Origin: Rhodospirillales bacterium RIFCSPLOWO2_02_FULL_58_16
GTDB taxonomy: Bacteria; Pseudomonadota; Alphaproteobacteria; Rhodospirillales; 2-02-FULL-58-16
Reading direction: 5' to 3'
NCBI GenBank assembly: GCA_001830425.1
Contig: MIAA01000014.1
Coordinates: 13,891-77,890, forward strand
Length of the DNA stretch: 64,000 nucleotides
The notes beneath the pieces were generated by a model. It saw only the letters and a list, made by a program, of their open reading frames with translations. It searched no databases and was not told where the DNA came from. The translations under genes and the position numbers were made by a program. Within the stretch, counting starts at the first letter, position 1; the number at the start of each line of letters is the position of its first letter. Shown here in pieces: positions 5,001 through 53,604 of the stretch.

Positions 5001-5017
5001 TTCGTTATCAGCCGGGA

Positions 5018-13530: not shown

Positions 13531-13615
13531 GCGGGCGTGGTGGAACTGGTAGACACGCTTGGTTTAGGTCCAAGTGCCGAAAGGTTTGGGGGTTCGAGTC
13601 CCTTCGCCCGCACCA
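13531..13615 (+). tRNA. tRNA-Leu (anticodon TAG)
   Basis: Manual fold. Acceptor GCGGGCG/CGCCCGC, anticodon stem CTTGG/CCAAG with loop TT-TAG-GT, long variable arm, T-loop TTCGAGT, encoded CCA. Confidence 0.9.
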
Positions 13616-20030: not shown

Positions 20031-20106
20031 GGGCGGTTAGCTCAGCTGGAAGAGCGTCACGTTTACACCGTGAATGTCGGCGGTTCGATCCCGTCACCGC
20101 CCACCA
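20031..20106 (+). tRNA. tRNA-Val (anticodon TAC)
   Basis: Manual fold. Acceptor GGGCGGT/ACCGCCC, anticodon stem TCACG/CGTGA with loop TT-TAC-AC, T-loop TTCGATC, encoded CCA. Confidence 0.9.
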
Positions 20107-20801: not shown

Positions 20802-20878
<77 letters not shown>

Positions 20879-20922: not shown

Positions 20923-21288
20923 ATGGATGTGATGCTTCAGCAATATTTCCCGATATTGGTATTTCTCGGCATCGCCGTCGCCATCGCCATAGCGGCGGTG
21001 GGAGCGTCTTATCTGATTGCCCGCCAGCTTCCGGACATCGAGAAGAACTCGGCCTATGAGTGCGGTTTCGAGCCGTTCGAGGATTCCCGGCAGAAGTTTG
21101 ATGTACGGTTTTATCTGGTGGCTATTTTGTTTATTATCTTTGATCTTGAAGTGGCTTTCCTGTTTCCGTGGGCGATATCGCTGGGGAAAATAGGCGTTTT
21201 CGGCTTCTGGTCGATGATGATTTTCCTTGGGGTTCTCACCATCGGCTTCATCTACGAATGGAAAAAGGGAGCCTTGGAGTGGGAGTAA
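20923..21288 (+). CDS. nuoA: NADH-quinone oxidoreductase subunit A
   Basis: 121 aa. [13 protein letters not shown]...[22 protein letters not shown]. Confidence 0.95.
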
Positions 21289-21821
21289 TATCCGAAGCCG
21301 CCGCGCCGCTTTCTTCCGGGAGCGACCAGGACCTCTTGTTGAACAGGATCGCCGGTGAATTAGGCGACAAGGGGTTTGTCACCGCAAGTCTGGATGGCCT
21401 GGTCAACTGGGTGCGCACCGGATCGTTGTGGCCGATGACCTTCGGCCTCGCTTGCTGCGCTGTGGAAATGATGCACGCCGCCGTCAGCCGTTATGACATG
21501 GATCGCTTCGGGGTCGTCTTCAGGCCCAGTCCGCGCCAGTCGGATGTCATCATTGTCGCCGGCACGCTGACCAACAAGATGGCGCCGGCCTTACGCAAGG
21601 TCTATGACCAGATGGCCGAGCCGCGCTATGTGATTTCCATGGGTTCGTGCGCCAACGGCGGCGGCTATTACCATTACTCATATTCCGTGGTCAGGGGTTG
21701 CGACCGGATCGTGCCGGTGGATGTCTATGTTCCCGGCTGTCCGCCGACGGCGGAAGCGTTGATTTACGGGATCATGCAGTTGCAGAAGAAAATAAAAGGG
21801 ACCGGCGCGCTTTTTCGCTGA
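21279..21821 (+). CDS. nuoB: NADH-quinone oxidoreductase subunit B
   Basis: [11 protein letters not shown]...[10 protein letters not shown]...PGCPP. I propose a GTG start at 21279 after GGGAG. The ORF-track start at 21168 lies inside nuoA. Confidence 0.9.
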
Positions 21822-21867
21822 CAAATAACAATAACTATAATAATGCCGACCCGAGACAGGGGGGGGG

Positions 21868-22476
21868 ATGGATCAGGCACTCAAGGATCTCGATGAATTT
21901 ATCGCAGGCGCGCTTTCCAAGGAAGTGGTGCGCTCCGAGATCGTCAACAACGAACTGATCGTGCTGGTGCGCGCAGAGAAGATCGTCAAAGTCCTGACTT
22001 TCCTGCGCGATGACGTCAACTGCCAATTCAAGCAGTTGATGGACCTTTGCGGCGTCGATTATCCTGAACGCGAGGAACGCTTCGAGGTGGTCTATAATCT
22101 GCTCAGCCTGACCCATAACCGCCGCCTGCGCATCAAGATTCAAATCGCCGACGGCGTCCCGGCGCCTTCGGTCAGCGGCGTGTTCAGCTCCGCCAATTGG
22201 TTTGAGCGCGAGGCGTGGGATCTCTTCGGCATCTATTTCTCCGAGCATCCTGATCTTCGCCGCATCCTTACCGACTACGGCTTTGAGGGTCATCCGTTAC
22301 GCAAGGATTTCCCCCTCAGCGGCTATGTGGAGGTGCGCTACGACGACGAGAAGAAGCGGGTGGCGTACGAGCCGGTCAAGATGACCCAGGAATTACGCAA
22401 TTTTGATTTCCTCAGTCCCTGGGAGGGGGCCAAGGCGGAGCTTCCCGTCGGCAAGAAGGCGGAAGGGCAAGCCTGA
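21868..22476 (+). CDS. nuoC: NADH-quinone oxidoreductase subunit C
   Basis: 202 aa. [42 protein letters not shown]. Confidence 0.95.
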
Positions 22477-23654
22477 TGGCCGGCGTCGATATCAAGAACT
22501 ATACCCTTAACTTCGGGCCGCAGCATCCGGCGGCCCATGGAGTTCTGCGGTTGGTGCTGGAGATGGACGGCGAGGTCGTTGAGCGGGCCGACCCTCATAT
22601 CGGCCTTCTGCATCGCGGCACCGAGAAACTTATCGAGAGCAAGACCTACGTTCGGGCGGTTCCTTATTTCGACCGCCTTGATTATGTCTCGCCGCAAAAT
22701 CAGGAACACGCCTACGCCCTGGCCGTCGAGAAGCTGCTGGGCATCGAGGCGCCGCCCAGGGGACAGTACATCCGGGTGCTTTACGCCGAGATCGGACGCC
22801 TGCTCAATCACATCTTCACCGTTTGCGCCTACGCCATGGATATCGGCGCCATGACGCCGATGCTCTGGGGCTTCGAGGAGCGCGAGCGCCTGATGGAGTT
22901 CTGCGAACGGGTAAGCGGCGCCCGCATGCATATGGCCTATTTCCGGCCCGGCGGCGTCGCTTTCGACATGCCTGACGGGCTGGCCGAGGATATCGCTGCC
23001 TGGTGTGAGCGCTTCCCTAAAGTGATGGATGATATTGAATCCCTGCTTACCGAAAACCGCATCTTCAAGCAGCGCTCCGTTGATATCGGCGCCGTCACCG
23101 CCGAGCAGGCTCTTGATTGGGGATTCAGCGGCCCCAATCTGCGCGCCGCCGGCGTTCCCTGGGACTTGCGTAAGTCTCAGCCCTACGACGTATATGAAAA
23201 GATGGATTTTGACATCGCCGTCGGAACTCACGGCGACTGCTATGATCGTTATCTGGTGCGCCTTCTGGAAATCCGCGAGAGCATCAAGATCGTCAAGCAG
23301 TGCCTGGAAAAGATGCCGTCCGGGCCGGTCAAGACGGATAACCGCAAGATTTCGCCGCCGCCGCGCGCCGAGATGAAAACCTCCATGGAATCGATGATCC
23401 ATCACTTCAAGCTGTCCTCTGAGGGCTATCATGTGCAAAAAGGCGAAACCTATACCGCCGTCGAGGCGCCCAAGGGCGAGTTCGCCGTTTATCTGATTTC
23501 CGACGGCTCCAACCGCCCGTACCGCTGTAAAATACGCACTCCGGGGTTCGCCCACTTGCAGAGCATGGATATGCTTTCAAAAGGCCATATGCTGGCCGAT
23601 GTGGTCGCCAACCTCGGCTCGCTTGACATTGTTTTCGGCGAGGTTGACCGATGA
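22476..23654 (+). CDS. nuoD: NADH-quinone oxidoreductase subunit D
   Basis: 392 aa. [15 protein letters not shown]...HRGTEKL...DIVFGEVDR. Confidence 0.97.
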
Positions 23655-24229
23655 GAGATATCAAACAGCCCGCCGGCTTCGCCTTCACCGAGGAAAACGT
23701 CAAAAAGGCCGACGAGTATGTAGCCAAGTACCCGAAAGGCCGTCAGGCCAGCGCGGTCATGCCGCTGCTTTACCTTGCACAGCGCCAGAACGATAACTGG
23801 TTGCCGCCGGCGGCTATGGATTACGTCGCCGAATTCCTCGGCATGGAGCCGATCCGCGTCTACGAGATCGCCAACTTCTACACCATGTACAATCTCAAGC
23901 CGGTGGGCCGTTACCATATTCAGGTATGCACCAGCATCTGCTGCATGTTGCGCGGCTCCGACGATATTGTCGCCTCGTGCAAAAAGGTGACGGGGGTTGA
24001 ATTCGGCGGAACCTCCGACGACGGCATGTTCACCTTGAGCGAGATGGAATGCCTCGGCGCCTGCGTCAACGCGCCGATGATGCAGATCAACGATGATTGC
24101 TACGAGGATTTGGACCAGGGCAGCGCCGAGTCCGTTCTCAATACGCTGAGAATCGGCGGCGCTCCGAAGGTCGGGCCGCAGAGCGCCCGCAAGGGAAGCG
24201 AACCCGGCCCCCTGAAGGGGAAGGGGTGA
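23651..24229 (+). CDS. nuoE: NADH-quinone oxidoreductase subunit E
   Basis: 192 aa. 2Fe-2S motif [10 protein letters not shown]...[10 protein letters not shown]. Confidence 0.95.
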
Positions 24230-24233
24230 TTTG

Positions 24234-25523
24234 ATGCTGAAAGACAAGGATCGCATCTTCACCAATATCTACGGCTTCGAGGACATCGGCCTGACCGGCG
24301 CCCGCTCTCGCGGAACTTGGGACGGAACCAGGGAGATCATGGCCAAGGGCCGCGACTGGATGGTCAATGAGGTCAAGGTGTCCGGCCTTCGCGGTCGCGG
24401 CGGCGCCGGTTTCAGCACAGGCATGAAATGGTCGTTCATGCCCAAGGAAATCGGCGAGCGCCCCCATTACCTTGTGATCAACGCCGATGAGAGCGAACCC
24501 GGCACCTGCAAGGACCGGGAAATCCTTCGTCATGAGCCTCACAAGCTGGTGGAAGGCGCTCTACTGGCCGCTTTCGCCATGGGCGCTCACGTTGCCTACA
24601 TCTATGTGCGCGGCGAGTTTTGCCGTGAAGCCGAAGTCTTGCAGCGGGCTATTGACGAAGCCCGCGAGGCCGGTCTTATCGGCAACAACGCCTGCGGGTC
24701 GGGTTGGGATTTCGAGCTGCATATCCATCGCGGCATGGGCGCCTATGTTTGCGGCGAAGAGGGGGCGCTTCTTCAGAGCCTGGAAGGCAAAAAAGGCCAG
24801 CCCCGGATGAAGCCGCCGTTCCCCGCCAATGTCGGCGTCTACGGCTGTCCGACTACGGTCAACAACGTCGAGTCGATCGCCGTTACCCCTGATATAATGC
24901 GTCGGGGCGCCGCCTGGTTCGCCGCGCTGGGGCGTCCCAACAACACCGGCATCAAGCTGTTTTGCATCTCCGGTCACGTCAATAATCCGTGTACCGTCGA
25001 AGAAGAGATGAGCATTCCCTTGAAGGAACTGATTGAAAGACACTGCGGCGGGGTGCGCGGCGGCTGGAATAACCTGATGGCGGTAATCCCCGGCGGCAGC
25101 TCGACGCCGAATATCACCAAGGAGGTGTGCGACACCGTGCTGATGGACTTTGATTCGCTGAAAGAGGCCAAGACCGGCCTCGGCACGGCGGCGGTGATCG
25201 TCATGGACAAGTCCACCGATATTTGCCGCGTAATCGCCCGTCTCTCCAAGTTCTACGCTCATGAAAGCTGCGGCCAATGCACGCCGTGCCGCGAGGGAAC
25301 CGGATGGATGGCGCGAATGATGGCGCGGATAGCCGTGGGCAACGCCGCCATCGACGAAATCGATCTGCTTGAGAAGGTCTCCCGCCAGATTGAGGGACAC
25401 ACCATCTGCGCCCTCGGCGATGCGTCGGCGTGGCCGATTCAAGGGCTGATCCGCAATTTCCGTCCTGAAATCGAGAAACGCATAAAAGAATACCAGGCGG
25501 CGCAAGCCGTCCAGGCGGCCTAG
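24234..25523 (+). CDS. nuoF: NADH-quinone oxidoreductase subunit F
   Basis: [14 protein letters not shown], and [15 protein letters not shown] 24234 is preferred over TTG 24231. Confidence 0.96.
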
Positions 25524-25534
25524 AGGTTTTACAG

Positions 25535-27595
25535 ATGCCTAAACTGACTATTGACGGCAGGGAAATCGAAGTCGCGGCCGGCCTGACGGTGATGCAGGCC
25601 TGCGACCAGATCGGCATTGAGCTTCCCCGCTTCTGCTACCATGAGCGCCTGTCGATCTCCGGCAACTGCCGCATGTGTCTGGTGGAGATGGAGAGGGCGC
25701 CGAGGGCGATTGCCGCCTGCGCCATGCCTGTGGGCGACGGCATGGTGATTCATACCAACACCGAGAAGGTCAAGAATATGCGCCGGGCGGTGCTGGAGTT
25801 CCTGCTTATCAACCACCCCCTTGACTGCCCGGTCTGTGATCAGGGCGGCGAGTGCGATCTTCAGGATATTACCGTCAATTACGGCATGGATCGCGGTCGC
25901 TTCCGGGAGAAAAAGCGGGCGGTGCGGGAAAAGAACTACGGCCCGCTGATCAAGCCGACGATGACCCGCTGCATCCATTGCACCCGCTGTATCCGTTTCT
26001 GTAGGGAAGTGGCCGGGGTTCCCGAACTGGGAGGGATCGGTCGCGGCGAACGCATGGAAGTGGGAACATATGTGGAAAAGGTGCTTAGTTCCGAGCTTTC
26101 CGGCAATATTATCGACCTGTGTCCGGTCGGGGCGCTGACCTCCAGACCCTATTCCTTCGCCGCCCGCCCCTGGGAGTTGAAGAAGACCGAATCTGTTGAC
26201 GTGATGGACGCCGTCGGCAGCAATATCCGCGTTGACAGTCGTGGTCCGGCGGTGATGCGGGTGCTGCCCAGGATCAATGAGGATATCAACGAGGAATGGA
26301 TTTCCGACAAGACCCGCTTTGCTTATGACGGCCTCAAGCGTCAACGTCTCGACACCCCTTATGTCCGGAAAAACGGCAAGCTGACGCCCGCGACCTGGGA
26401 CGAGGCCCTCGCCGCCGTCGCCAAGGGCCTCAAGGGCCTCAAGGCCGGGGAGATCGCCGCCATCGCCGGCGACATGGCCGATGGCGAGTCAATGACGGCG
26501 CTGAAGGATTTGCTGGACTCGCCCAACATTGACTGCCGTCAGGACGGTGCCGCCCTGGATGGATCGAGGCGCGTCGGCTATATCTTCAACACCACCATCG
26601 CCGGCATCGAACAGGCCGGCGCCTGCCTGCTTATCGGAACCAATCCCCGCCTTGAAGCGCCGATCATCAACGCCCGCATCAGAAAACGCTCCAGGAAGGG
26701 CGGATTCGCCATTGCATCGGTTGGGCCTGATGTTGATTTAACGTATAAATACAAACACTTGGGCAACGACACTAATGTTTTGAATGAGATTGCCTCCGGT
26801 TCTCACCTCTTTGCCGAAGCGCTGAAAAAAGCCGTCCGCCCGATGCTGATCGTCGGCATGGGGGCGCTGACCAGGCCCGACGGCGGGGCCGTCCTGTCGG
26901 CGGCGCGCAAGATCGCCGAGGATTGCGGCATGATCCGCGACAACGGCGGCTGGAACGGCTTCAACATTCTGCACACGGCGGCGGCGCGGGTCGGCGGCCT
27001 TGATCTCGGCTTCCTGCCGGGCAAGGGCGGACTGGATGCCGCCGGCATTATCGACGGCGCCGCCAACGGCGTGGTGAAGGCGGTCTATCTGCTGGGCGCC
27101 GATGAAATCGACATGAGCCGTCTGGGCGACGCTTTCGTTATTTATCAGGGGCATCACGGCGACGCCGGAGCCTCGCGGGCCGATGTAATTCTTCCCGGCG
27201 CCGCCTACACCGAGAAGAACGCCACCTACGTCAACACCGAGGGCAGGGTGCAGCGGACGAGCCTTGCCGTTTTCCCGCCCGGCGAAGCGCGTGAAGACTG
27301 GAAAATCATCCGGGCGCTGTCCGAAGTTCTCGGCAAAACGCTTCCCTTTGACACCCTTTCGCAGGTGCGCGAGCGGATGGCCGAGGTAAATCCCGTCTTT
27401 GCCGCCCTGAATGAGACCAAGCCGGCGGCCTGGGGCGCTTTCGGCGGGGACGGCAAGCTTGACGCCGCGCCTTTCGTATCGCCCATTGTCAATTTTTACA
27501 TGACCGATCCCATAAGCAGAGCGTCAGCCACCATGGCCGCCTGCACCGATGTGTTCGCAGCGTCTAAACGCGGAAAGACCGGAACCGATGGCTGA
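25535..27595 (+). CDS. nuoG: NADH-quinone oxidoreductase subunit G
   Basis: 686 aa. N-terminal 2Fe-2S/4Fe-4S motifs ([46 protein letters not shown]). Confidence 0.96.
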
Positions 27596-28616
27596 ACTTT
27601 GGGACGGATATATCTGGCCGACGCTGTGGATCGTCATCAAGATCCTCGCCATCGTCGTGCCTCTGCTGATCGGGGTGGCTTATCTTACCTACGCCGAGCG
27701 CAAGGTGATCGGCGCCATGCAGCTTCGCCGGGGGCCGAACGTGGTCGGGCCGTTCGGCCTTCTTCAGCCGCTGGCCGACGGCGTCAAGCTGCTGCTGAAA
27801 GAGACCATAATTCCGTCCCGGTCCAACCCCGCCATCTTTATTCTGGCCCCGGCCATAACCTTTGTTTTGTCGCTGGTGGCGTGGGCGGTGGTTCCTTTCG
27901 GCGAGGGGATGGTGCTGGCCGATATCAATGTCGGCATTCTCTATCTTTTCGCCATTTCGTCGCTCAGCGTTTACGGCATTATGATGGCCGGTTGGGCCAG
28001 TAACTCACGCTATGCTTTCCTTGGGGCGCTGCGTTCGGCGGCGCAGATGGTTTCCTACGAGGTCGCCATGGGCTTCGTCATCGTTACCGTGCTGCTGTGC
28101 GCCGGTTCCATGAATCTCAGCGATATAGTCATGGCCCAGAAGGGTATGTGGTTCGTGATTCCGCTGTTTCCGATGGCGGTGATTTTCCTGATCTCGATCC
28201 TGGCCGAGACCAACCGTCACCCCTTTGATTTGCCGGAGGCCGAGGCCGAGTTGGTGGCCGGCTATAACGTCGAGTATTCGGCGATGACCTTCGCCCTGTT
28301 CTTCCTCGGCGAATATGCCTTCATGATCCTGATGTCGGCGATGACCGCCATTCTCTTCCTCGGCGGCTGGCTGCCGCCGTTTGACATGGCGCCGTTCACC
28401 TGGATACCCGGCCCGGCGTGGTTCGCCTTGAAGATCGCCTTTGTGCTGTTCGTTTTCCTGTGGGTGCGGGCCACCTTCCCGCGTTACCGCTATGACCAGT
28501 TGATGCGGCTGGGCTGGAAAGTCTTTCTGCCGCTGTCGCTGGCGGGAGTGGTGATCGTCGCCGGCGTTCTCGTCGCCTTCGGGTTGACGCCGGTGGCGGG
28601 TCAGGGGGGTATATGA
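27588..28616 (+). CDS. nuoH: NADH-quinone oxidoreductase subunit H
   Basis: [11 protein letters not shown]... with [16 protein letters not shown] and [25 protein letters not shown]. The start overlaps the nuoG end. Confidence 0.94.
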
Positions 28617-29089
28617 GCTTTATTCGCACCGTATTCCTGACGGAGTTGGTCTCGGGCATGGCGCTGACCCTGCGTTATTTTTTCCGCGCCAAGATAACCA
28701 TCAACTATCCTTATGAGAAAGGTCCGCTCAGCCCGCGCTTTCGCGGCGAACACGCGCTTCGCCGCTATGCGAACGGCGAGGAGCGTTGTATCGCCTGCAA
28801 ACTGTGCGAAGCGGCGTGTCCGGCCCAGGCCATCACTATCGAGGCCGAGCCTCGCAATGACGGCAGCCGCCGCACCACGCGCTACGACATCGACATGACC
28901 AAGTGCATTTTCTGCGGCTATTGCCAGGAAGCCTGCCCGGTTGACGCTATCGTCGAAGGGCCGAATTTTGAATATGCCACCGAAAGCCGCGAGGAACTGA
29001 TATACGACAAGGCTAAACTGCTGGCTAACGGCGAACGGTGGGAAACGGAACTGGCCGACCGCATCGCGGTCGAAGCCCGATACCGTTAA
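28613..29089 (+). CDS. nuoI: NADH-quinone oxidoreductase subunit I
   Basis: 158 aa. Two CxxCxxCxxxCP motifs ([24 protein letters not shown]). Confidence 0.96.
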
Positions 29090-29102
29090 GGATAATGGAA
29101 CG

Positions 29103-29714
29103 ATGATCGAAGCACTGGTGTTTTACATGTTCGCCTTTGTAACCGTGGCCTCCGGGGTCATGGTTATCTCTTCGCGCAATCCGGTGCATTCGGTGTTGTT
29201 TCTAATTCTCGCTTTCTTCAATGCGGCCGGACTGTTCCTGTTGCTGGGCGCCGAGTTTCTGGCGATGATCCTGGTTATCGTCTACGTCGGAGCGGTAGCG
29301 GTGCTGTTCCTGTTCGTGGTGATGATGCTGGATATCAATTTTGTCGAAATACGCCAGGGGTTCCTTCATTATCTGCCGATAGGCGGCTTGATCGGAGTGG
29401 TGCTGATCGCCGAACTGCTGACCGTCATCGGCAGTCGGGTCATGGTTCCTGATGCTGCGGAAAAAGGAGCGGCGCCGATGCCGTCTCTTGAGGCTACTGC
29501 CAATACCAATGCGTTGGGCGAATTGATCTACACCCATTACATTTATTTATTCCAGGCGGCGGGACTCATTCTGCTGGTGGCGATGATCGGCGCCATTGTC
29601 CTCTCTCACCGCAGCCGCAAGGGCGTCCGCAGGCAGAATATTTCAGACCAGATAGCGCGTCGCGCCGAGGAATCGGTCAAAACCCGCAAGGTCGAGTCGG
29701 GGAGGGGCATCTGA
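29103..29714 (+). CDS. nuoJ: NADH-quinone oxidoreductase subunit J
   Basis: 203 aa. Hydrophobic, NuoJ-like ([17 protein letters not shown]). Confidence 0.93.
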
Positions 29715-30025
29715 TGTCGGTAATCGGCCTGTCCCATTACCTGAGCGTCGCCGCCATCCTGTTTGTGCTGGGGATTTTCGGGATTTTTCTCAATCGCAAA
29801 AACGTAGTCATCATCCTGATGTCAATCGAGTTGATGCTGTTGGCGGTCAATATCAATCTGGTGGCCTTCTCCGCCGAGATGCACGACCTTGTCGGTCAGG
29901 TTTTCGCCATGTTCATTCTGACCGTCGCCGCCGCCGAGACCGCCATCGGGCTGGCTATTCTGATGGCCTTTTTCCGTAATCGCGGCACCATCGCCGTCGA
30001 AGACATCAACTCGATGAAGGGCTGA
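29714..30025 (+). CDS. nuoK: NADH-quinone oxidoreductase subunit K
   Basis: 103 aa. [17 protein letters not shown]...[12 protein letters not shown]. Intact C-terminus. Confidence 0.94.
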
Positions 30026-30029
30026 GAAA

Positions 30030-30692
30030 TTGCCGACAACCCTTGAAGCGATAATAATTCTGGTTCTTCTGGTTGTTCCGGGCTTTTTGTGCTGGCAGTT
30101 AATTTCATCCAGGATGCCGAGTACGTTTGTATCCGATGCGCATTCAGTATTAACTTTTTTGTTTTTCAGCACGTTAATCCATGTCTTGGCCTCGCCGGTT
30201 ACTATTTGTTTATCAAGTCAAATCGTGGCGTTCAGCAGCTCCTTGAAAAGCATAGACGCAAATAATCAAGTTTTTTGGGATTGGGCTGTTTTTGCCTGGG
30301 TAATATTTGTTTTATTTGTTATGCCCATAGTGGTGGCTTGGTTTGTTTCTTGGTTATGGAAAAAGAATCGGCTTCAATGGATTCTTGGTAAATTTGGCCT
30401 TTCCCTTGTTCAAAAAACGCCAAAGGCTTGGGATTGGTTTTTTCTCACTCATAACAAAGAAGGGTATTGGGTTGTTGCTGAAATGGACGATGGCGCATTG
30501 GTCGGCGGAGAGTTCGGCGGGGAATCATTTTCATCACTTTCTCCACATAAAGAAGACCTATATCTAGAAAGCGCTTACTATGTGGATGAAAATCATATTT
30601 TTCTTGGCCTGATACCAAATAATGCCGGCGTCTGGATAAACGGAGACAAGGTTAAGGCATTATTTTTCTACAGTGTTAGCAAAGGAGATTAA
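30030..30692 (+). CDS. hypothetical membrane protein (3 predicted N-terminal TM helices plus a soluble C-terminal domain; reminiscent of DUF6338-type proteins)
   Basis: 220-aa ORF, TTG start 4 nt after the nuoK stop. The DNA is visibly AT-rich relative to flanking nuo genes. TM-like segments: AIIILVLLVVPGFLCWQLI, VLTFLFFSTLIHVLASPV, WAVFAWVIFVLFVMPIVVAWFVSWLW. The DUF assignment is from memory only. Confidence 0.6.
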   Translation: MPTTLEAIIILVLLVVPGFLCWQLISSRMPSTFVSDAHSVLTFLFFSTLIHVLASPVTICLSSQIVAFSSSLKSIDANNQVFWDWAVFAWVIFVLFVMPIVVAWFVSWLWKKNRLQWILGKFGLSLVQKTPKAWDWFFLTHNKEGYWVVAEMDDGALVGGEFGGESFSSLSPHKEDLYLESAYYVDENHIFLGLIPNNAGVWINGDKVKALFFYSVSKGD

Positions 30693-30694
30693 AA

Positions 30695-30910
30695 ATGAGT
30701 CAGCATCGAATTATTGATTTATCAGGCAATAATGTCGGCAGGGGAGTCAGGCCATCTTCGGATGCCGGCCCAATGCCGGAAATGAAACCTCACCCATCCG
30801 GTGTCAAGCCTGTGACCATGAGAGGCCTATCCGCAACCCGTTGGGCTTCTGTCCGTCCCGGTGATCAGAAACCGCAAGCGGCGCCCACGCCGGACAAAAA
30901 AAAGAAATAA
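30695..30910 (+). CDS. hypothetical small Pro/Lys-rich protein
   Basis: 71-aa ORF. ATG lies 2 nt after the previous stop and is preceded by GGAG. Low-complexity C-terminus (PQAAPTPDKKKK). No recognisable family. Confidence 0.4.
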   Translation: MSQHRIIDLSGNNVGRGVRPSSDAGPMPEMKPHPSGVKPVTMRGLSATRWASVRPGDQKPQAAPTPDKKKK

Positions 30911-30920
30911 GTAGAATTCC

Positions 30921-32879
30921 GTGTACACAGCTATCGTCTTCCTGCCGCTTTTCGGAGCGATGATCGCCGGGGCCATGGCCTTTTCCTCGCCCGAGGACGA
31001 GAAGGCCATGGCGCGTATCGACAAGACGGCGCAGTGGGTCGCCTGCGGCGCCATGATGCTGTCCGCCCTGCTGGCGATAAATATGTTTGCGGACGTGGCC
31101 TTCGGCGGCAAAGCCGGCGTCATTCATTTGCTTGCCTGGATCGATTCCGGAACCCTGGAGGTTTCGTGGGCGCTCAGACTGGATACGCTGTCGGCGGTGA
31201 TGCTGCTGACCGTTTCCATCACCTCGACGGTAATCCACGTTTATTCAATCGGTTACATGGGCCATGATTCGTCGGTTCCGCGCTTTATGTCGTATCTCAG
31301 CCTGTTCACTTTCTGCATGTATATGCTGGTGACTTCGGACAATCTGGTACAGCTTTTCTTCGGCTGGGAGGGCGTCGGCCTGATGTCCTACCTGCTGATC
31401 GGCTTCTGGTATGACAAGCCCTCGGCCAATGCCGCCGCCATCAAGGCTTTCGTCGTCAACCGGGTCGGCGATTTCGGCTTCGCATTGGGCATTTTCGCCA
31501 CCTTCGTGTTGTTTGACTCGGTGAACTTCGACACCATTTTCGCCGTGGCTCCCGGCAAGGCCGCCGCCGTGATGAACGTCTTTGGAATCGAGTTCCACGC
31601 CCTGACCGTGATCTGTCTGCTGCTGTTCGTCGGCGCCATGGGCAAGTCGGCTCAATTAGGGCTGCACACATGGCTTCCCGACGCTATGGAAGGCCCGACG
31701 CCGGTTTCCGCCCTGATTCACGCCGCCACCATGGTCACCGCCGGCGTTTTCATGGTGGCGCGACTGTCGCCGCTGTTTGAGTACTCGGACACGGCGTTAG
31801 CGGTGGTCACCGTCGTCGGCGGCTCGACCGCCATCTTCGCCGCCACCATCGGCTGCGTGCAGAATGACATCAAGCGGGTAATCGCCTATTCCACCTGCTC
31901 GCAGTTGGGTTATATGTTTTTCGCCATCGGCGTTTCGGCCTATTCGGCGGGCGTATTCCATCTGATGACCCACGCCTATTTCAAGGCGCTGTTGTTCCTC
32001 GGCTCCGGGTCGGTAATTCACGCCATGTCGGACGAGCAGGATATGCGCCGGATGGGAGGCATCTGGAAGTCGATCCCCGTCACCTACGCCATGATGTGGA
32101 TCGGCAGTCTGGCGCTGGTGGGCATCCCGCCGTTCGCCGGCTTCTATTCCAAGGATATCGTTCTTGAGGCGGCCTACGCCGCCCATACCGGCGTCGGCGC
32201 TTATGCCTTCTGGATGGGGATCGCCGCCGCTACCTTAACCGCGTTTTATTCGGGACGGCTGTTGTTCATGACCTTCCACGGCAAACCCAGGGCCGATGCC
32301 GAGACAATGTCTCATATTCACGAATCGCCCAAGGTGATGCTGATCCCGCTGCTGGTGCTTTCGGTGGGCGCCATGTTCGCCGGAAAGATCGGCTATGATT
32401 ACTTCGTCGGCCACAACGCGGCCGATTTCTGGGGCGCTTCAATCCTGATCCTGCCCGTCCATGACGCTCTTGAGGCGGCTCACCATGTGCCGACATGGGT
32501 GAAATACCTGCCGCTGGCAGTCGGCGGCGGCGGCATTTTTGCGGCCTTCGTCATGTATGTGGTCGCGCCGGGCATTCCGGGGGCTTTGGCCGGAACTTTC
32601 AGCGGCGTGTACAAATTCCTGCTCAACAAGTGGTACTTTGACGAGCTTTACGACTTCCTGTTCGTGCGGCCGGCGTTCATGCTGGGCAGGGGCTTCTGGA
32701 AGTCGGGCGACGGCGCCCTGATCGACGGCGTCGGTCCCGACGGCGTTGCCGCCGCGACCTTGAATTTGGCCAAAAGGGCGTCGCAATTTCAGTCCGGCTA
32801 CCTTTATCACTACGCCTTCGCCATGTTGGCCGGGGTCGTCGTGTTGATAACCTGGTATCTGTTCATGGCGATGGGGTGA
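30921..32879 (+). CDS. nuoL: NADH-quinone oxidoreductase subunit L
   Basis: 652 aa, GTG start. [51 protein letters not shown]. Confidence 0.96.
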
Positions 32880-32886
32880 GGGGAGC

Positions 32887-34401
32887 ATGAGCGATTTTCC
32901 ACTCCTCTCGGTGGTGGCCTTCCTGCCTTTGGTCGGGGCGGCCTTCATTTTGTTCATACGCGGCAGCGACGAGATCGTGGCGCGTAATTGCCGGAACGTG
33001 GCGTTGTTAACGTCTATGTTCACTTTCCTGGTGTCGCTGGCCGTCTGGATCAACTTCGACAACACGACGGCCGACTTCCAGTTCGTCGAGAAACTGGCGT
33101 GGATGCCCTACTACAAGATTTCCTATTACCTCGGCGTCGATGGTATTTCGATGCTGTTCGTCATGCTGACCACTGTGTTGACGCCGATAGCGGTGGGGGT
33201 CAGTTGGCAATCCGTCACCAGCCGCGTCAAGGAATACATGATCGCCTTCCTGGCCCTGGAAACGATGATGATCGGCATGTTTTGCGCTCTTGACATCGTT
33301 CTCTTCTACATTTTCTTCGAGGCGGTGCTGATTCCCATGTTTCTGATCATTGGCGTATGGGGCGGACCTCGTCGCGTCTATGCCGCCTTCAAGTTCTTTT
33401 TGTATACGCTACTCGGCTCGGTGCTGATGCTGCTGGCGTTGCTGGTTATGTATTATACGGCCGGCACCGCCGAGATTCCGCTGCTGATGCAGTACAAGTT
33501 CCCGGTTCACCTGCAGGTCTGGCTGTGGCTGGCTTTCTTCGCCTCCTTCGCCGTCAAGGTGCCGATGTGGCCGGTGCATACCTGGCTGCCCGACGCCCAT
33601 GTCGAGGCGCCGACGGCCGGCTCGGTAATTCTGGCGGCGGTATTGTTGAAGTTCGGCGGCTATGGATTCCTGCGTTTTTCGCTGCCCATGTTCCCCGACG
33701 CTACGATTGAATTCGCGCCGCTGATCTTCACCCTCAGCATTATCGCCGTGATCTACACCTCGCTGGTGGCGCTGGTCCAGGAGGACATGAAAAAGCTGAT
33801 CGCCTATTCCTCGGTGGCTCACATGGGGTTTGTCACGGCGGGAACCTTCTCCCTGACCCTGCACGGCATCGAGGGCGCCATCTACACCATGCTCAGTCAC
33901 GGCGTCGTCTCCGCCGCCTTGTTCATGATCGTCGGCGTCGTCTATGACCGCATACATTCACGCGATATCGCCGCCTACGGCGGTCTGGTGCATCGCATGC
34001 CGATCTATGCGTGGACTTTCATGCTGTTCATGCTGGCGTCGGTCGGGCTTCCGGGGACCGGAGGCTTTGTCGGTGAATTCCTGGTGCTGCTGGGAGTCTT
34101 CGAGGTCAATACCGTGGTGGCGGCGCTGGCTTCCACCGGCGTCGTTCTGGGCGTCGCTTATATGCTGTACCTTTACCGACGGGTCGTTTTCGGCAAGCTG
34201 ACCAAGGAAGACCTTATGAACATCGCCGACATGAACGGTCGTGAAATCCTGGTTTTCGCGCCGCTGGTAGCGCTGGTCCTGTGGATGGGCGTCTATCCGA
34301 CGCCGTTCCTCGACGTTATGCATGTTTCGGTGAGCAATCTGGTCAATCATGTCAATGAGACGCGAGCGTTGACCGGCTTCGCCGAAATGATTGGACATTA
34401 G
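32887..34401 (+). CDS. nuoM: NADH-quinone oxidoreductase subunit M
   Basis: 504 aa. [27 protein letters not shown]. Confidence 0.96.
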
Positions 34402-34413
34402 GAGAGGACTGAA

Positions 34414-35895
34414 GTGACGCCTTTAGCGGAAATTCCGAACCTGATCCCGGCCTTGCCGGAAATTTTCATGGCCTTGGCGGCGATGGCGCTGCTGATGCTC
34501 GGCGTCTCCCACAAGGAGGACGCCGTTGACGCCGTCGCCGCCCTCAAACACACCCGCCTTATTTCGTATTTGGCGGTTATCACCTTGTTTTTGGCTTTGC
34601 TGCTGGTGACGACCGTGGCCGGCGGCGGACGCATGACTTCGTTCAACGGCATGTTTATCGGCGATCCCTTTGCCGCCTTCTTCAAGGTTTTGGTATTGAT
34701 CGCCTCGGCGCTGGCTATCGTCATCTCCCAAAGTTATCTGGAGCGCCAAGGCTCCGTCCGCTTCGAGTTCGCCGTGCTGGTCCTGTTCGCCACCATCGGC
34801 ATGATGATGATGATTTCGGCCAACGATCTTATCTCGCTTTATGTGGGGCTTGAGATGCAGAGTTTGTCGCTTTATGTGCTGGCGGCTTTCCAGCGCGATG
34901 ACGGGCGCTCGACGGAGGCCGGGCTTAAATATTTTGTTCTCGGCGCGCTGGCCTCGGGAATGCTGCTGTACGGATCATCGCTGATCTACGGCTTCACCGG
35001 GACCACCAATTTCGAGACGCTGGCCGGGTTGTTGCACAGTGGGCATGGGACCGTGTCGTCGGGCGTCGTCTTCGGCATCGTGTTTATTCTCGCCGGCTTG
35101 GCCTTTAAGGTCTCGGCGGTTCCGTTCCATATGTGGACGCCCGACGTCTACGAGGGCGCGCCGACGCCGGTCACCGCCTTCTTTTCGGTGGGACCGAAAC
35201 TGGCGGCGATGGCGTTGTTCATCCGGGTGATGATCGGCCCCTTCGGCGATCTGGTGAGCGAATGGCAACAGATCGTGGTGCTGGTTTCCATGGCGTCGAT
35301 GGTCCTCGGAGCCTTTGCCGCCGTCAATCAGACCAATATCAAAAGGCTGATGGCGTACAGCTCCATCGGTCACGTCGGATACGCGCTGATCGGTCTGGCG
35401 GTCGGCAACGAAGCGGGAATTCGCGGAATTCTGATCTATCTGGCTATCTATCTGTTCATGAATATCGGCGCCTTTGCCTGTATTTTGTGCATGCGCCGGG
35501 GTGATCGCATGGTCGAGAACATCTCAGACCTCGCCGGACTGTCCAAGAGCCACCCGATGGTGGCGCTGGCCTTCACCATTTTCATGTTCTCAATGGCGGG
35601 AATTCCGCCGTTGGCCGGGTTCTTCGGCAAATTCTATATCTTCCTGGCGGCGATGGAGGCGGAGCTTTACGCGCTGGCCGTCATCGGCGTGCTGGCCAGC
35701 GTGGTCTCCGCCTTCTATTACCTGAGGATCGTCAAGATCATGTACTTTGACGATCTCGGCGAGACCCTTGAAAAATCCATCGGCGCGGATATCTCCGTGG
35801 TATTGCTGGGGGCCGGTCTGCTGATTATGTTCTTTATCCTTTACCCTTCTCCCGTTCTTTCCGCCGCCGCCGCCGCCACCGCCGCGCTGTTTTGA
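34414..35895 (+). CDS. nuoN: NADH-quinone oxidoreductase subunit N
   Basis: 493 aa, GTG start. [25 protein letters not shown]. Confidence 0.94.
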
Positions 35896-50051: not shown

Positions 50052-51027
50052 ATTCGGGATTATCTCCCGTTTCTTCGCCCCCCTGGCCGAGGGCGAGCCG
50101 GGAGCTTTCGGGCTTACCGACGACGCCGCGCTGATCCCCGCCGGACCGGGTCGTCTGGTCATCACCACCGACGCCATAGTCGCCGGTATCCATTTCCCGG
50201 AAGCGACGGCGGCGGATTTGATCGCCGCCAAGATGCTGGGGGTGAATCTCTCCGATATGGCGGCCATGGGCGCAACGCCGGAGGTCTATACGCTTTCGTT
50301 GGCCCTGTCCGAAGACGTTGACGACGATTGGCTGGAGTTGTTTTCGTCCTCCCTGGCGGCGGAACAGGAGATTTACCGGATAACCTTGATCGGCGGCGAC
50401 ACGGTGGCGACGACCGGGCCGCTTACCTTCGCCGTAAGCATGGTGGGCAGGGTGGAGGAGGGGAGAGAATTGCGGCGTTCGGGCGCTCGTCCCGGCGACA
50501 TTATTTATGTTTCGGGAGCAATCGGCGACGCCGCCCTCGGCCTGAAAGTAATTAACGGCGAACTTCCGTGGTTGGCCGACGGCTTTGGCGAAGACCTGGC
50601 GGATCGCTACTACAGACCGCAGCCGCGAGTGGAATTGGGACGGCGGCTTGCCGGACTCGCTCATGCCGCCATCGACGTTTCGGACGGGTTGGCGGCTGAC
50701 CTCAGACATGTATGCGCGGCGTCGGGCGTTGCCGCTACTTTAGCGGCGCATAAAGTCCCTTTATCGCCGGCGGGCCGGGCGGCGGTTGAACACGCCCCGG
50801 AATTGATTTCAAGCGTCCTCGGCGGGGGAGACGATTACGAACTCCTCTTTACCGCTCCCCCCGAAGCCGCCGATGCGCTTGCTCGTTTGTCGCGGGACCT
50901 GAACCTGCCCCTGACCGCCGTTGGAAGCATTGCCGGAATGACCGGGGAAACGCACGGAGTCACAATCATTGATAAAAACGGCGATGAAATCAAACTGACC
51001 GCCGACGGCTACCTGCATTTTGCGTGA
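50026..51027 (+). CDS. thiL: thiamine-monophosphate kinase
   Basis: 333 aa, GTG start. EFGIISRFF...TTDAIVAGIHF...GGDT...DVSDGL. Confidence 0.9.
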   Translation: MGRSRKSSEFGIISRFFAPLAEGEPGAFGLTDDAALIPAGPGRLVITTDAIVAGIHFPEATAADLIAAKMLGVNLSDMAAMGATPEVYTLSLALSEDVDDDWLELFSSSLAAEQEIYRITLIGGDTVATTGPLTFAVSMVGRVEEGRELRRSGARPGDIIYVSGAIGDAALGLKVINGELPWLADGFGEDLADRYYRPQPRVELGRRLAGLAHAAIDVSDGLAADLRHVCAASGVAATLAAHKVPLSPAGRAAVEHAPELISSVLGGGDDYELLFTAPPEAADALARLSRDLNLPLTAVGSIAGMTGETHGVTIIDKNGDEIKLTADGYLHFA

Positions 51028-51110
51028 AAGGCGGAACTTGGCGATGGGCGCGGTGCGCCACAGATAACCAAAAAGTTACTGCTATATTTGACAGGGGAGG
51101 GAGCGGAAAA

Positions 51111-51311
51111 GGCTTATCCCGTTGTCCCAGGTGACGAGGATGAACTTAGCAAAGCCGTTGGCGCAGATGGACGCCATAGTCAAAACTCTTCCCAACTCAT
51201 CCTCAATCACGGTATTCCGCACCCCAAACAGAGCAAAAATGGCCCAGAATTACCAAGGCTCTCACCATCGTTCGGGTATGCCGGGCCGAACCTGGGACAA
51301 CGAGATAAGCC
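51111..51311. repeat. 201-bp segment bounded by 21-bp inverted repeats (GGCTTATCCCGTTGTCCCAGG ... CCTGGGACAACGAGATAAGCC; 20/21 match)
   Basis: The inverted repeat is seen directly. The interior has no convincing ORF. It lies at the left edge of the low-GC ParA/RelA-SpoT island. Confidence 0.6.
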
Positions 51312-51483
51312 TTGAGCGGAACCTCAGGTAGTGTAGGAAATGATGAGAAAAATATTCTTATTAATTTCCGTGTGCGGCTGGATGATGTAGCTACAATGCA
51401 GCAAACATAGTAGTATCAGTTCTTATATCTTGGAAATGTGTATTGCATGTCTCGGTAGGTCTGGCTACTCCATTAGGTGAACA

Positions 51484-52587
51484 ATGAAAACCATATCAAT
51501 ATTTAACAATAAGGGCGGTGTTGGTAAAACAACGCTGACTTTTCACTTGGCACATGCTTTAGCTGAAATGAAGCACAAAACGCTTGTCGTCGATTTAGAT
51601 CCCCAATGTAACCTAACTATTCTCGGTATGGATGAAGAAGAACTTCATGAAATATGGTCTGTTGAGGATTCATTTATTGATGATTTCCAAGGGGCAAGAG
51701 AAAAATGTACGCCCGTTGATTTTGATAAGATAATTTCTGAACCTAGATCGGTTCACTTCCTTTTAAAGCCAGCTGAGGATGGTGCTGCAGAAATAGGAAA
51801 GTTGCCACCACCATATAAATTAGCAACTAATTTGGACCTTATCCCAGGTCGTCTCACCATGCATTTATATGAAGATAAGATTGCTGGTCGTTGGAGCGAC
51901 GTATATCAGGGAGACCCCCTCGCGATCCGTACTGTTACCAAACCACGAGAACTTGCCGAGTCTTATGCCAAACAGCATGGGTATGAATATATTATTATGG
52001 ATACATCGCCAAGCCTAGGCACTTTGAACAAGGTAATTATTTCTACAGCAGACGGCTTTCTCATTCCATGTATGCCCGACATGTTTTCTCTATATGGGGT
52101 TCAGAACATTGGGAATGCATTAAGTGTCTGGAAAAAACAATTTGATACAATTTACCATTTACTTTCCTCTGAGAAACGTAAATCCTTTCCGGCCAATTAT
52201 GTGAGACTTCTTGGTTTTACTATTTATAATGCTAAAAAATATTCTGGTAAAGAAAAGCCGTGGAATCTCGCAACAGCGCATTACAATTACGCAAAAAAGA
52301 TTCCTGATGCGATCAATCAATTTATACCATCAGGTGTTAGGGATAGGTTGGAAGAAAAAGCGTTATCGTCCCCTGTAGGCGAAACCGCAATTATGCACAC
52401 TCACAATACCCTCCCCAGTATGGCACAACGCTATCATTTGCCAATGTGGAAAGTCCCATCATGTGATAGTTTGGATAATACCGATGTCTCCACGATAAAA
52501 GGAAACAGAGGTATTTATGAGGATACAAAAAGTAAATACGCCGTGTTTGCGACGGCTCTTTTAACGCGCCTCAAAACTTTAGAATAG
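51484..52587 (+). CDS. ParA/MinD-superfamily (deviant Walker A) ATPase, enlarged (367 aa)
   Basis: MKTISIFNNKGGVGKTTLTFHLA...VVDLDPQCNLT...IIMDTSPSLG. RBS AGGTGA. The DNA is strongly AT-rich. No ParB gene or parS-like repeats are adjacent. Confidence 0.85.
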   Translation: MKTISIFNNKGGVGKTTLTFHLAHALAEMKHKTLVVDLDPQCNLTILGMDEEELHEIWSVEDSFIDDFQGAREKCTPVDFDKIISEPRSVHFLLKPAEDGAAEIGKLPPPYKLATNLDLIPGRLTMHLYEDKIAGRWSDVYQGDPLAIRTVTKPRELAESYAKQHGYEYIIMDTSPSLGTLNKVIISTADGFLIPCMPDMFSLYGVQNIGNALSVWKKQFDTIYHLLSSEKRKSFPANYVRLLGFTIYNAKKYSGKEKPWNLATAHYNYAKKIPDAINQFIPSGVRDRLEEKALSSPVGETAIMHTHNTLPSMAQRYHLPMWKVPSCDSLDNTDVSTIKGNRGIYEDTKSKYAVFATALLTRLKTLE

Positions 52588-52599
52588 GGCGTATGCCCA

Positions 52600-53307: not shown

Positions 53308-53340
53308 CGCCGGGAGTCAACCGGCGTTACCCTCTCCTTC

Positions 53341-53604
53341 ATGACGGCAATCACCTTTGATACCCTGAAGTTCGTGGAGCGGCTGAAGGCGGCGGGCATT
53401 CCCGAAGCTCACGCTAAAGCCGAGGCTGAGGCGCTAATCGAGGCCCTGTCCGAGTCGGCGACTAATTCTCTGGCCACCAAACGGGATGTCAGCCGCATCG
53501 AAGTAAAGCTTGTGGAACACGACGGCGAGTTCAAACTCATCAAGTGGATGCTGGGCATCCTCATGGCGGGCGTGATGTCGCTGATCATTAAGTCCTTTTT
53601 CTAG
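53341..53604 (+). CDS. DUF1640-like coiled-coil protein with a C-terminal TM helix
   Basis: 87 aa. FDTLKFVERLKAAGIPEAHAKAEAEAL...KWMLGILMAGVMSLIIK. Confidence 0.65.
   Translation: MTAITFDTLKFVERLKAAGIPEAHAKAEAEALIEALSESATNSLATKRDVSRIEVKLVEHDGEFKLIKWMLGILMAGVMSLIIKSFF

Follow-up and report, generated by a model that had tools for sequence, protein, structure and literature searches.

How do two genes of foreign-looking composition come to stand inside the operon of an essential respiratory enzyme? The question is raised by a 64,000-nucleotide (nt) stretch of Rhodospirillales bacterium RIFCSPLOWO2_02_FULL_58_16 (contig MIAA01000014.1, positions 13,891-77,890), referred to here as the window, in which two open reading frames (ORFs), ORF-A and ORF-B, lie between nuoK and nuoL of the complex I operon. 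ORF-A encodes a predicted membrane protein of the DUF6338 family, and ORF-B encodes a small basic Pro-rich protein. On our best reading, the pair did not arrive recently and is not one of the core subunits of complex I. We give about an even chance to the fuller proposal that it is a self-contained accessory two-gene module, probably of a conflict type, which lodged once behind nuoK and rides on nuo expression.

The pair is not restricted to the window. Nine more independent loci have a homologue of ORF-A at the nuoK/nuoL junction, and these homologues are 33-84% identical to one another. Beyond the cluster of identical sequences, ten ORF-A homologues of 41-70% identity were found, and the exact ORF-A sequence occurs only on contigs of the window's own organism. 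The order nuoK, DUF6338 gene, small Pro/Lys-rich ORF(s), nuoL recurs in loci L004-6, L008-L011, L013, L014, and L016/17 and is partly seen in L002, L007, L012, and L015. In these carriers, 4-7 nt separate nuoK from ORF-A, and the last small ORF stops 8-25 nt before nuoL. The flanking proteins are 62-75% (NuoL) and 77-86% (NuoK) identical to those of the window. All carriers are metagenome-assembled genomes (MAGs) or metagenome contigs, one labeled Azospirillaceae and the rest unclassified Alphaproteobacteria. A strain-specific insertion, which an earlier interpretation made from the letters alone (the sequence-only reading) had considered, is at odds with the presence of the pair at the same junction in nine further loci.

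The pair is also not universal. Identity of the nuo-type ORF-A subfamily to other DUF6338 proteins does not exceed 37%, and the subfamily is rare: ~10 protein clusters belong to it, whereas NuoL has more than 120 clusters at ≥72% identity. The three cassette-free relatives inspected, which are the closest by NuoL (P0021, 86%; P0022, 82%; P0025, 78%), have a nuoK-nuoL gap of 7-9 nt. A complex I subunit would be expected throughout the clade that shares the operon, and the pair is missing in these nearest relatives. This absence, together with the pseudogenization of ORF-A in one carrier lineage, bears out the accessory status suggested earlier. Ancestral extra genes had been expected to be conserved at this position throughout the family with matching composition. 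The position is indeed conserved in many lineages, but presence is not family-wide and codon usage does not match.

The pseudogene is found in L008 (5807-7131), where the DUF6338 gene begins normally (VPATLEALAIIILIVMPGFLCWQLLASHIPNT) and is then frameshifted and interrupted. The intruding sequence is a GC-rich (0.65-0.75) fragment of ~0.6 kb that encodes the N-terminus of an IS3-type HTH_21 transposase and is no part of the module. Gene callers merged the DUF6338 gene and the insertion sequence fragment into a 376-residue chimera (P0006). Behind the broken ORF-A, the small ORFs and nuoL-N are intact, indicating that ORF-A is dispensable.

In the closest pair of carriers, both genes are under purifying selection, with a much weaker constraint than the nuo genes. 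Between L010 and L013, whose NuoL proteins are 95% identical, ORF-A has 84% amino acid identity, a nonsynonymous divergence (dN) of 0.087, and a saturated synonymous divergence (dS, about 2.2); the first small ORF has a dN/dS ratio (omega) of about 0.25. The flanking nuo genes have dS values of 0.18-0.36. The cassette is collinear with graded boundaries, and its DNA is 68-90% identical compared to 90-98% in the flanks. As a sign of allelic replacement, this dS contrast is ambiguous because the codon bias of nuo (GC content at third codon positions, GC3, about 0.9) depresses nuo dS and because the cassette is collinear. Very strong constraint on the codons of nuo could account for the contrast, and so could the replacement of one cassette allele by another.

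The composition of the pair is what first sets it apart. In 200-nt windows, GC falls to 0.38-0.45 over 30000-30700 as opposed to 0.53-0.69 in the flanks. The 663 nt of ORF-A have a GC of 0.412 (z = -3.35 relative to all segments of the same size in the 64 kb), and only one other region, at 51.0-53.4 kb, reaches a GC of 0.45 or less. GC3 is 0.41 for ORF-A and 0.50 for ORF-B, compared to 0.66-0.81 for the other genes of the operon (nuoA-N, birA, and coaX). The overall GC of ORF-B (0.54) is host-like owing to its Pro-, Gly-, and Ala-rich composition. The lower GC previously ascribed to both ORFs therefore applies to ORF-A overall and in GC3, and to ORF-B in GC3 only.

The compositional contrast of ORF-A recurs in the other carriers. 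ORF-A is AT-richer than its flanks in every nuo-junction carrier (GC 0.41-0.59 vs 0.62-0.66; GC3 0.37-0.71 vs 0.70-0.97), and DUF6338 genes outside nuo have a GC below that of their surroundings in 11 of the 12 loci checked. Since the low GC3 persists in all carrier lineages, it cannot serve as a clock for recency. AT-richness appears to be a standing trait of this accessory family rather than a sign of recency, and it may plausibly come from escaping the GC-favoring forces that act on core genes. For genome scans, this advises caution: a sharp GC dip in a core operon would here mark an old, site-faithful resident and not a recent transfer.

The history of the junction was examined with neighbor-joining trees of ORF-A and of NuoJ+K+L+M. 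The groups ((window,L008),L009) and L010+L013 are common to both. L014 and L016 are paired in the ORF-A tree, inside the host L004/L014/L016 clade, and L004 is the one supported conflict. ORF-A identity lies below NuoL identity in every pair compared. The 3′ end of nuoK and the 5′ end of nuoL in the window are closest to those of cassette-free relatives, not to those of carriers. Import by recombination together with donor flanks was rejected for the window on the basis of sliding amino acid and DNA identity of nuoJ/K/L against L018, L020 (both cassette-free), and the carriers, which reveals native sequence and no mosaic. The largely congruent trees, the lower ORF-A identity, and the native flanks favor a single old insertion followed by mostly vertical descent and repeated precise loss. 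The spacer between ORF-B and nuoL (GTAGAATTCC) is similar to the whole of the sequence that separates nuoK from nuoL in L018 (GGTAGGAT); the insertion point can thus be put immediately behind the nuoK stop. It is hypothesized that the module inserted once, right behind this stop, in an ancestor shared by a wide range of Rhodospirillales-like Alphaproteobacteria and was then mainly inherited vertically, with precise loss in many lineages (including the closest relatives) and perhaps occasional exchange.

The cassette of the window consists of the two ORFs, neither of which is a recombinase, and no flanking repeats of at least 14 nt were found around it. An autonomous mobile element would be expected to have a transposase or integrase together with terminal repeats or a target duplication, and the cassette does not qualify as one. 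Among the nine loci, flanking repeats are seen in L009 only and are absent in the window and in seven others. In L009, a 57-nt direct repeat (4948-5004 and 6163-6219; 56/57 identical) brackets a 1,215-bp cassette. The repeat comprises the final 46 nt of nuoK, the spacer of 7 nt, and ATGC, and ~75 nt of unrelated sequence separate the last small ORF from its second copy. Possible origins of the repeat are recent integration, a Campbell-type event, and a duplication by which nuoL regained its native translation signals.

Small cassettes that are swapped between conserved core genes by homologous recombination are known from Neisseria as minimal mobile elements. The pair resembles them in being a small cassette without mobility genes, located between the same two conserved genes and present or absent among relatives; the 57-nt flanking target repeats of L009 are a further likeness, confined to that locus. 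In contrast to minimal mobile elements, the pair bears no sign of recent exchange: the cassette is always more divergent than its flanks, the window has native flanks, and the trees agree for the most part.

The anatomy of the junction is given in Table 1, in which the two-ORF arrangement and the 4-, 2-, and 10-nt spacings first reported for it are reproduced. The nuoA-N genes are contiguous (20923-35895) and are followed by birA and coaX; ORF-A and ORF-B are the sole extra ORFs. Both neighbors are intact. The window NuoL is native and 100% identical to NuoL of Rhodospirillales bacterium RIFCSPLOWO2_12_FULL_58_2…, and the homologous start codon (MYTAIVFLP…) that is GTG in the window is ATG in the cassette-free L018 and L020. 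The 3′ end of nuoK (…ATGAAGGGCTGA) is purine-rich and resembles a Shine–Dalgarno (SD) sequence; it precedes ORF-A here and nuoL in cassette-free relatives. Promoter-like and terminator-like sites in the cassette are no more numerous than in shuffled sequence, and an Rfam scan for an RNA element returned a single chance-level match (E=0.3). On the basis of the tiny spacers and the lack of a promoter or terminator excess, co-transcription with nuo, already proposed, is likely.

Table 1. Features of the nuoK-nuoL junction in the window, and small ORFs behind DUF6338 genes in four loci outside nuo
Feature	Position	Strand	Basis or remarks
nuoK (103 residues), upstream boundary	29714-30025	+	ORF and translation; stop TGA; PF00420 on the identical gene in L001
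Spacer from nuoK stop to ORF-A, GAAA, 4 nt	30026-30029	+	equivalent of 4-7 nt in 9/9 homologous loci
ORF-A, 220-residue DUF6338 membrane protein (predicted)	30030-30692	+	PF19865 over the full length; TTG start
ORF-A N-terminal membrane domain (predicted)	30033-30362	+	AlphaFold: transmembrane helices 2-26, 36-60, 85-111; short helix 62-73
ORF-A C-terminal domain, residues ~133-215	30426-30674	+	model: helix and strongly bent beta-sheet, Sm/LSm-like (SH3-like) small barrel
ORF-B, 71-residue basic Pro-rich small protein, putative cognate partner of ORF-A	30695-30910	+	starts 2 nt past ORF-A
ORF-B conserved N-terminal motif M..R.IDL….VG.GV(Q/R)P.S.AGP.P	30695-30784	+	alignment
Spacer from ORF-B to nuoL, GTAGAATTCC, 10 nt	30911-30920	+	junction comparison
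nuoL (652 residues), downstream boundary, intact and native	30921-32879	+	GTG start
L025, Microcystis			small ORF …NDGYQAKIDKPPGKPPQGGS…
L029, Acidobacterium, dnaN-gyrB			small ORF …DGYQP…RGYQG…KGYQPK…APKK
L037, Klebsiella phage-plasmid			small ORF …EKGYQPNVNGGYQPPKK…PPPKKP
L038, Acinetobacter plasmid			three tandem small ORFs, ends PPKKP/PPRKP

ORF-A belongs to PF19865 (DUF6338; E=1.4e-32, 113.4 bits with a cutoff of 26.5), with residues 1-216 matching profile positions 1-202 of 205, so that the DUF6338 guess of the sequence-only reading was right. Its TTG start aligns with the ATG or GTG start of the homologues (MP(T/A)TLEA). The family is moderately large, with 3,519 cluster representatives at E≤1e-3, or roughly 3,500 clusters when sequences are grouped at 50% identity. 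Its members are single-domain proteins of ~200 residues, and profile searches return PF19865 proteins only. Neither ORF-A nor ORF-B has a meaningful match in NCBIfam, PHROGs, or PADLOC; in PADLOC-DB v2, the window ORFs have no match at E≤1 and the A. soli DUF6338 protein has none at E≤0.01. The best viral match of ORF-A is one uncharacterized, full-length Siphoviridae protein (E=2e-6).

The AlphaFold model of ORF-A was built on an alignment of 18 homologues and has a predicted local distance difference test (pLDDT) score of 80.5. Six Lys/Arg residues follow the third transmembrane helix (KKNR…K…K…K), which by the positive-inside rule would place the N-terminus outside and the C-terminus, with the soluble domain, in the cytoplasm. 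ORF-A is therefore predicted to be an inner-membrane protein with an N-out orientation, three transmembrane helices, and a cytoplasmic Sm-like barrel. In a Foldseek search against the PDB, the top 50 matches are all of the Sm/LSm/SmAP/Gemin type. These matches are weak (E 0.025-0.5, target TM-scores of 0.29-0.64, sequence identity of 9-23%), making the assignment of the C-terminal domain to the Sm/LSm-like small barrels provisional. In contrast to Sm/LSm proteins, to which the likeness is a weak match of predicted fold, the barrel of ORF-A would be tethered to three transmembrane helices. An MscS-like channel, which likewise would combine three transmembrane helices with an Sm-like domain, was considered and set aside, MscS being absent among the top 50 Foldseek matches listed.

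The C-terminal domain harbors the invariant motifs of DUF6338 (TPxAWDxFF, GG, SFxS, and DLYLE). In the ORF-A family, the invariant or nearly invariant residues are P131, W134, D135, F138, G160, S166, F167, S169, D176, L177, Y178, and E180.

ORF-B contains 10 Pro (14%) and 13 Lys/Arg among its 71 residues, has a net charge of about +8, and is probably disordered. It is unmatched in Pfam as well as in the NCBIfam, PHROG, and PADLOC families, as are the small ORFs of other loci in Pfam and NCBIfam. Its first 30 residues can be aligned in ten loci (invariant R5, I7, G15, P20, S22, G25, and P28), and its tblastn matches in other nuo-type loci lie directly past the ORF-A stop. A second motif, G.QPKAPAGPKP…KK-stop, ends just 5′ of nuoL. 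The small-ORF region comprises one ORF in the window and L014 and two ORFs in most loci, and it is frameshifted in some. From this conservation, ORF-B appears to be a real, cognate partner of ORF-A, and its translation in the window is predicted.

Two loci carry enlarged versions of this region. In L011 (5668-6357), it has grown to ~700 nt and contains two near-identical N-terminal motifs (MAWERKIDLRKIRLGEGVQPLSGPGP… and MKFERKIDLRKIRVGEGVQPLSGPGP…) as well as a 35-nt repeat that occurs four times and encodes QP.SGPGPKP. In L012 (443-1500), the small ORF opens with the usual motif (MGIRREIDLSKIRRVGGGLAPSSGAGPKP) and continues for ~1 kb with leucine-rich-repeat-like units (LAGLTGLQSLDL…); a stretch of masked N precedes nuoL. 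The contig is labeled 'uncultured Mycobacteriaceae'; its nuoL is alphaproteobacterial-like, and the label is thus probably a binning error.

The small partner is not a peculiarity of the nuo junction. Small (<110 residues) Pro-rich ORFs lie directly downstream on the same strand in 10/10 nuo-type loci and in all of the 13 other DUF6338 contexts, a small sample biased by six contexts from a plasmid database. These 13 contexts each have 1-3 small basic Pro-rich ORFs. G[YWF]xP motifs (1-3 each) occur in 12 of them, the Pseudomonas (Stutzerimonas) stutzeri proteins being of a G.GVQ type instead, and outside nuo the C-termini are mostly PPKKP or KK. In addition to the loci in Table 1, L021, L022, L023, L033, L036, L039, L040, and L041 harbor a DUF6338 gene with small Pro-rich ORF(s). 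The pairing spans Alpha-, Beta-, and Gammaproteobacteria, Cyanobacteria, Acidobacteria, and Chloroflexi. A literature search on 'GYQP' returned SARS-CoV-2 spike peptides only.

In one organism, the partners have been detected as proteins. P. stutzeri ATCC 14405 has a DUF6338 gene (Pstu14405_RS12030) with SEP1, SEP5, and SEP2, three Pro-rich proteins of 36, 47, and 41 residues that were detected by digest-free mass spectrometry with 44-114 peptide-spectrum matches and a coverage of up to 100% (PMC10433244, Anal Chem 2023). LipoP predicted a cytoplasmic location for them, and they were observed in intact form, with membrane fractions not analysed (PMC10433244). This is the only paper mentioning DUF6338 in our literature search. 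As in the window, the DUF6338 gene is followed by small basic Pro-rich ORFs with a Lys-rich tail, and SEP1 (MVSSPGSGVQ…NVRPAMAP…PPPPKK) resembles ORF-B (…GRGVRPSSDAGP…SVRPGDQKPQAAPTPDKKKK). Unlike the P. stutzeri operon, the window subfamily is embedded in nuo and is marked by an N-terminal motif of its own, R.IDL…G.GVQP.SGAGPKP. The authors deemed the small proteins species-specific (PMC10433244), whereas analogous ORFs follow every DUF6338 gene examined here. The partner ORFs in all contexts, together with their resemblance to the P. stutzeri proteins, argue that the two-gene unit is a general module, and for at least one organism the small partner is known to be translated.

A conflict-type role is suggested by the neighbors of several DUF6338 genes. 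On the Mesorhizobium mediterraneum plasmid NZ_CP088154.1 (L040), DUF6338 lies 11 nt downstream of a cyclic-oligonucleotide-based antiphage signaling system (CBASS) cyclase (PADLOC E=6e-125) and a 2TM/SLATT effector. The genes at L040 2067-4252 (CBASS cyclase, 2TM/SLATT, DUF6338, and an unannotated 61-residue GFQP/GGYQG ORF) run head to tail with 11-nt or overlapping spacers. One possibility is that DUF6338 acts as an auxiliary or second effector in some CBASS operons. In L039, the module is Tn7 cargo and adjoins a ThsB-like TIR protein and a caspase. In a Chloroflexi MAG (L023/L024), DUF6338 adjoins PDC-M24B and a type II restriction endonuclease with Vsr and Dcm, and on Acinetobacter plasmids (L038), it follows Prok-E2_A and an E1-JAB fusion. 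L036 and L041 are small plasmids rich in toxin–antitoxin genes, and L037 is a Klebsiella phage-plasmid.

In this small, plasmid-biased sample, genes recognised by PADLOC adjoin 4-5 of the 13 non-nuo contexts; the nuo-type copies are without such neighbors. Other contexts are of a housekeeping kind and include dnaN-gyrB, a position beside rbcLXS, a nitrate-transporter locus, and metabolic genes. In Acidobacteria of the 'Candidatus Acidiferrum' type (L029-L032, 5001-5833), DUF6338 and a 73-residue GYQP-repeat ORF lie between dnaN and gyrB. This arrangement occurs on dozens of contigs and represents a second module lodged in a highly conserved housekeeping cluster. DUF6338 is found on 20 of 72,556 plasmids and on 1 of 50,697 phage records; this scarcity indicates that it is not primarily a gene of mobile elements.

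The pair shares with abortive-infection and toxin–antitoxin-type modules (e.g., CBASS 2TM/SLATT) the combination of a small membrane protein and a small partner, an AT-richer composition than the host, and a patchy distribution. As with defence modules, DUF6338 units are carried on plasmids, Tn7 cargo, and a phage-plasmid and adjoin CBASS, Thoeris-like TIR/caspase, restriction-modification, and E1/E2/JAB genes. Unlike known defence modules, however, they are unmatched by PADLOC v2 models, and many members, including that of the window, reside in housekeeping contexts. The sequence-only reading had offered an abortive-infection-type membrane effector as one alternative, and these neighbors elsewhere in the family lend it circumstantial support.

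The two-gene module behind nuoK may be pictured as follows. Lacking its own promoter and terminator, it would depend on the nuo mRNA and on translational coupling for its expression, with the SD-like 3′ end of nuoK now serving ORF-A. Speculatively, the Lys-codon tail of the small ORF (AAGAAG/AAAAAG and stop) may in turn provide nuoL with an SD-like sequence. The Pro-rich partner would bind and control the SH3-like/Sm-like barrel of ORF-A. Together, the two proteins would form a conflict-type module (i.e., an abortive-infection-, defence-, or addiction-like membrane effector and its small regulator) that works independently of catalysis by complex I. Residence in an essential, tightly packed operon would afford constitutive expression and a shield against all but precise deletions.

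Several points weigh against this proposal. The binding of the peptide to the barrel is pure inference, and PADLOC and PHROG models leave both ORFs unmatched. About half of the non-nuo contexts are unrelated to conflict, and 6 of the 13 derive from the plasmid database. A vertical history requires very many losses, while the L009 repeat and the L004 conflict hint at some lateral movement. Strict retention in nuo in ~10 lineages with tight coupling could instead reflect co-option by complex I.

A broader version, in which DUF6338 and its G[YWF]xP/PPKKP-tailed mini-protein(s) constitute a widespread, unrecognized two-component conflict system for abortive infection or addiction, with a Pro-rich ligand gating the barrel of the membrane effector, and in which one branch is a long-standing resident of the complex I operon that is expressed along with the respiratory machinery and possibly senses it, is entertained as a doubtful extension. 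Such a system would also account for the persistence of a foreign-looking gene in an essential operon across long evolutionary spans. In any case, an obligate Pro-rich partner, a predicted topology and fold, and a recurrent defence adjacency offer a first handle on DUF6338.

Under the co-option alternative, the pair serves complex I in particular lineages as an accessory subunit, an assembly factor, or a regulator, with DUF6338 docking on the membrane arm near NuoK/NuoJ/NuoL and the small protein assisting; its place in the operon would then be a consequence of this role. Non-subunit ORFs, termed unidentified reading frames (URFs), are interspersed and co-transcribed with the 14 complex I genes in the nqo/nuo clusters of Paracoccus denitrificans and Rhodobacter capsulatus, and the window pair is likewise a set of extra non-subunit ORFs in an alphaproteobacterial complex I operon. 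The classical URFs are located elsewhere (e.g., around nqo1-3 and nqo9-10), none is known to lie between nqo11/nuoK and nqo12/nuoL, and a literature search for a nuoK-nuoL insert found no description. Unlike these URFs, the pair has a codon usage of foreign appearance, belongs to a family that is mostly found outside nuo, and does not occur in the nearest relatives.

An identical operon position in ~10 lineages with NuoL only 59-75% identical speaks for a link to complex I, as do spacers that imply co-translation with membrane-arm subunits, the purifying selection on the pair, and a distinct DUF6338 subfamily with its own small-ORF motif. Against such a link, the pair is missing in most related nuo operons besides the three closest relatives, and L008 retains nuoL-N behind a broken ORF-A. 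The low GC3 of the pair, where the genome GC3 is near 0.9, predicts poor, non-stoichiometric translation, and ORF-A evolves ~3x faster than NuoL. The other DUF6338 modules are unrelated to nuo, several of them in defence or plasmid settings. A sequence search of solved structures returned chance-level matches only (E about 0.3, including the complex I B15 chain at E=0.32) and no homologous complex I chain. A role in complex I is therefore considered unlikely. For complex I biology, the observation nonetheless means that some Alphaproteobacteria have an extra membrane protein predicted to be co-translated between NuoK and NuoL.

A production locus for secreted or modified peptides, whether RiPP-like (ribosomally synthesized and post-translationally modified) or antimicrobial-like, with the Pro-rich proteins as precursors and DUF6338 as exporter, processing, or immunity protein, is improbable. 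The 1-3 tandem small ORFs with a conserved G[YWF]xP core and C-terminus behind one membrane protein would suit such a locus, and according to PMC10433244, DUF6338 is found in biosynthetic gene clusters and Pro-rich small proteins may have antimicrobial roles. The module, however, is without a leader or signal peptide, a modifying enzyme, or a transporter; the P. stutzeri proteins are intact and predicted to be cytoplasmic; and the soluble domain of DUF6338, predicted to be cytoplasmic, matches no enzyme-like fold.

A recent, strain-specific horizontal insertion of unameliorated AT-rich DNA, to which the GC contrast had pointed in the sequence-only reading, now has very little to commend it. 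The compositional contrast is strong, the closest sampled relatives are cassette-free, and the near-perfect repeat of the nuoK 3′ end in L009 resembles a fairly recent integration or conversion. However, the nearest ORF-A (L008/P0002, 59-63%) is found in the carrier with the nearest NuoL (75%), in line with the largely congruent trees, and an ORF-A identity that is always below that of NuoL gives no sign of a recently shared allele. Nine further loci share the junction, the window has native flanks without repeats, and since GC3 is low in all carriers, composition is no measure of age. It is scarcely credible, too, that the pair is a decaying, non-functional relic tolerated because only precise deletions are viable in the operon: fast evolution, atypical codons, frequent loss, the L008 pseudogene, and a small-ORF region that is split, duplicated, or frameshifted in several loci would fit decay, but ORF-A is intact and full length with its invariant motifs in 9/10 loci, dN is far below dS, and the small ORF has a conserved N-terminal motif.

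Elsewhere in the window, the only other strongly AT-rich island (51000-53450; GC 0.39-0.45, GC3 0.35-0.41) is located after a gene with AIR-synthase-related (AIRS) domains. It encodes a ParA/MinD-like AAA_31 ATPase of 367 residues (51484-52587, + strand) and, 12 nt past it, a 235-residue RelA_SpoT-domain protein that resembles small alarmone synthetases (52600-53307, + strand). PADLOC returns a weak, partial match of the ATPase to PDC-M28B only (E=1e-6); the two genes could be a toxSAS-like or defence pair. Immediately 5′ of nuoA (20923) are tRNA-Val(TAC) (20031-20106) and tRNA-Asp(GTC) (20802-20878), and tRNA-Leu(TAG) is located at 13531-13615.

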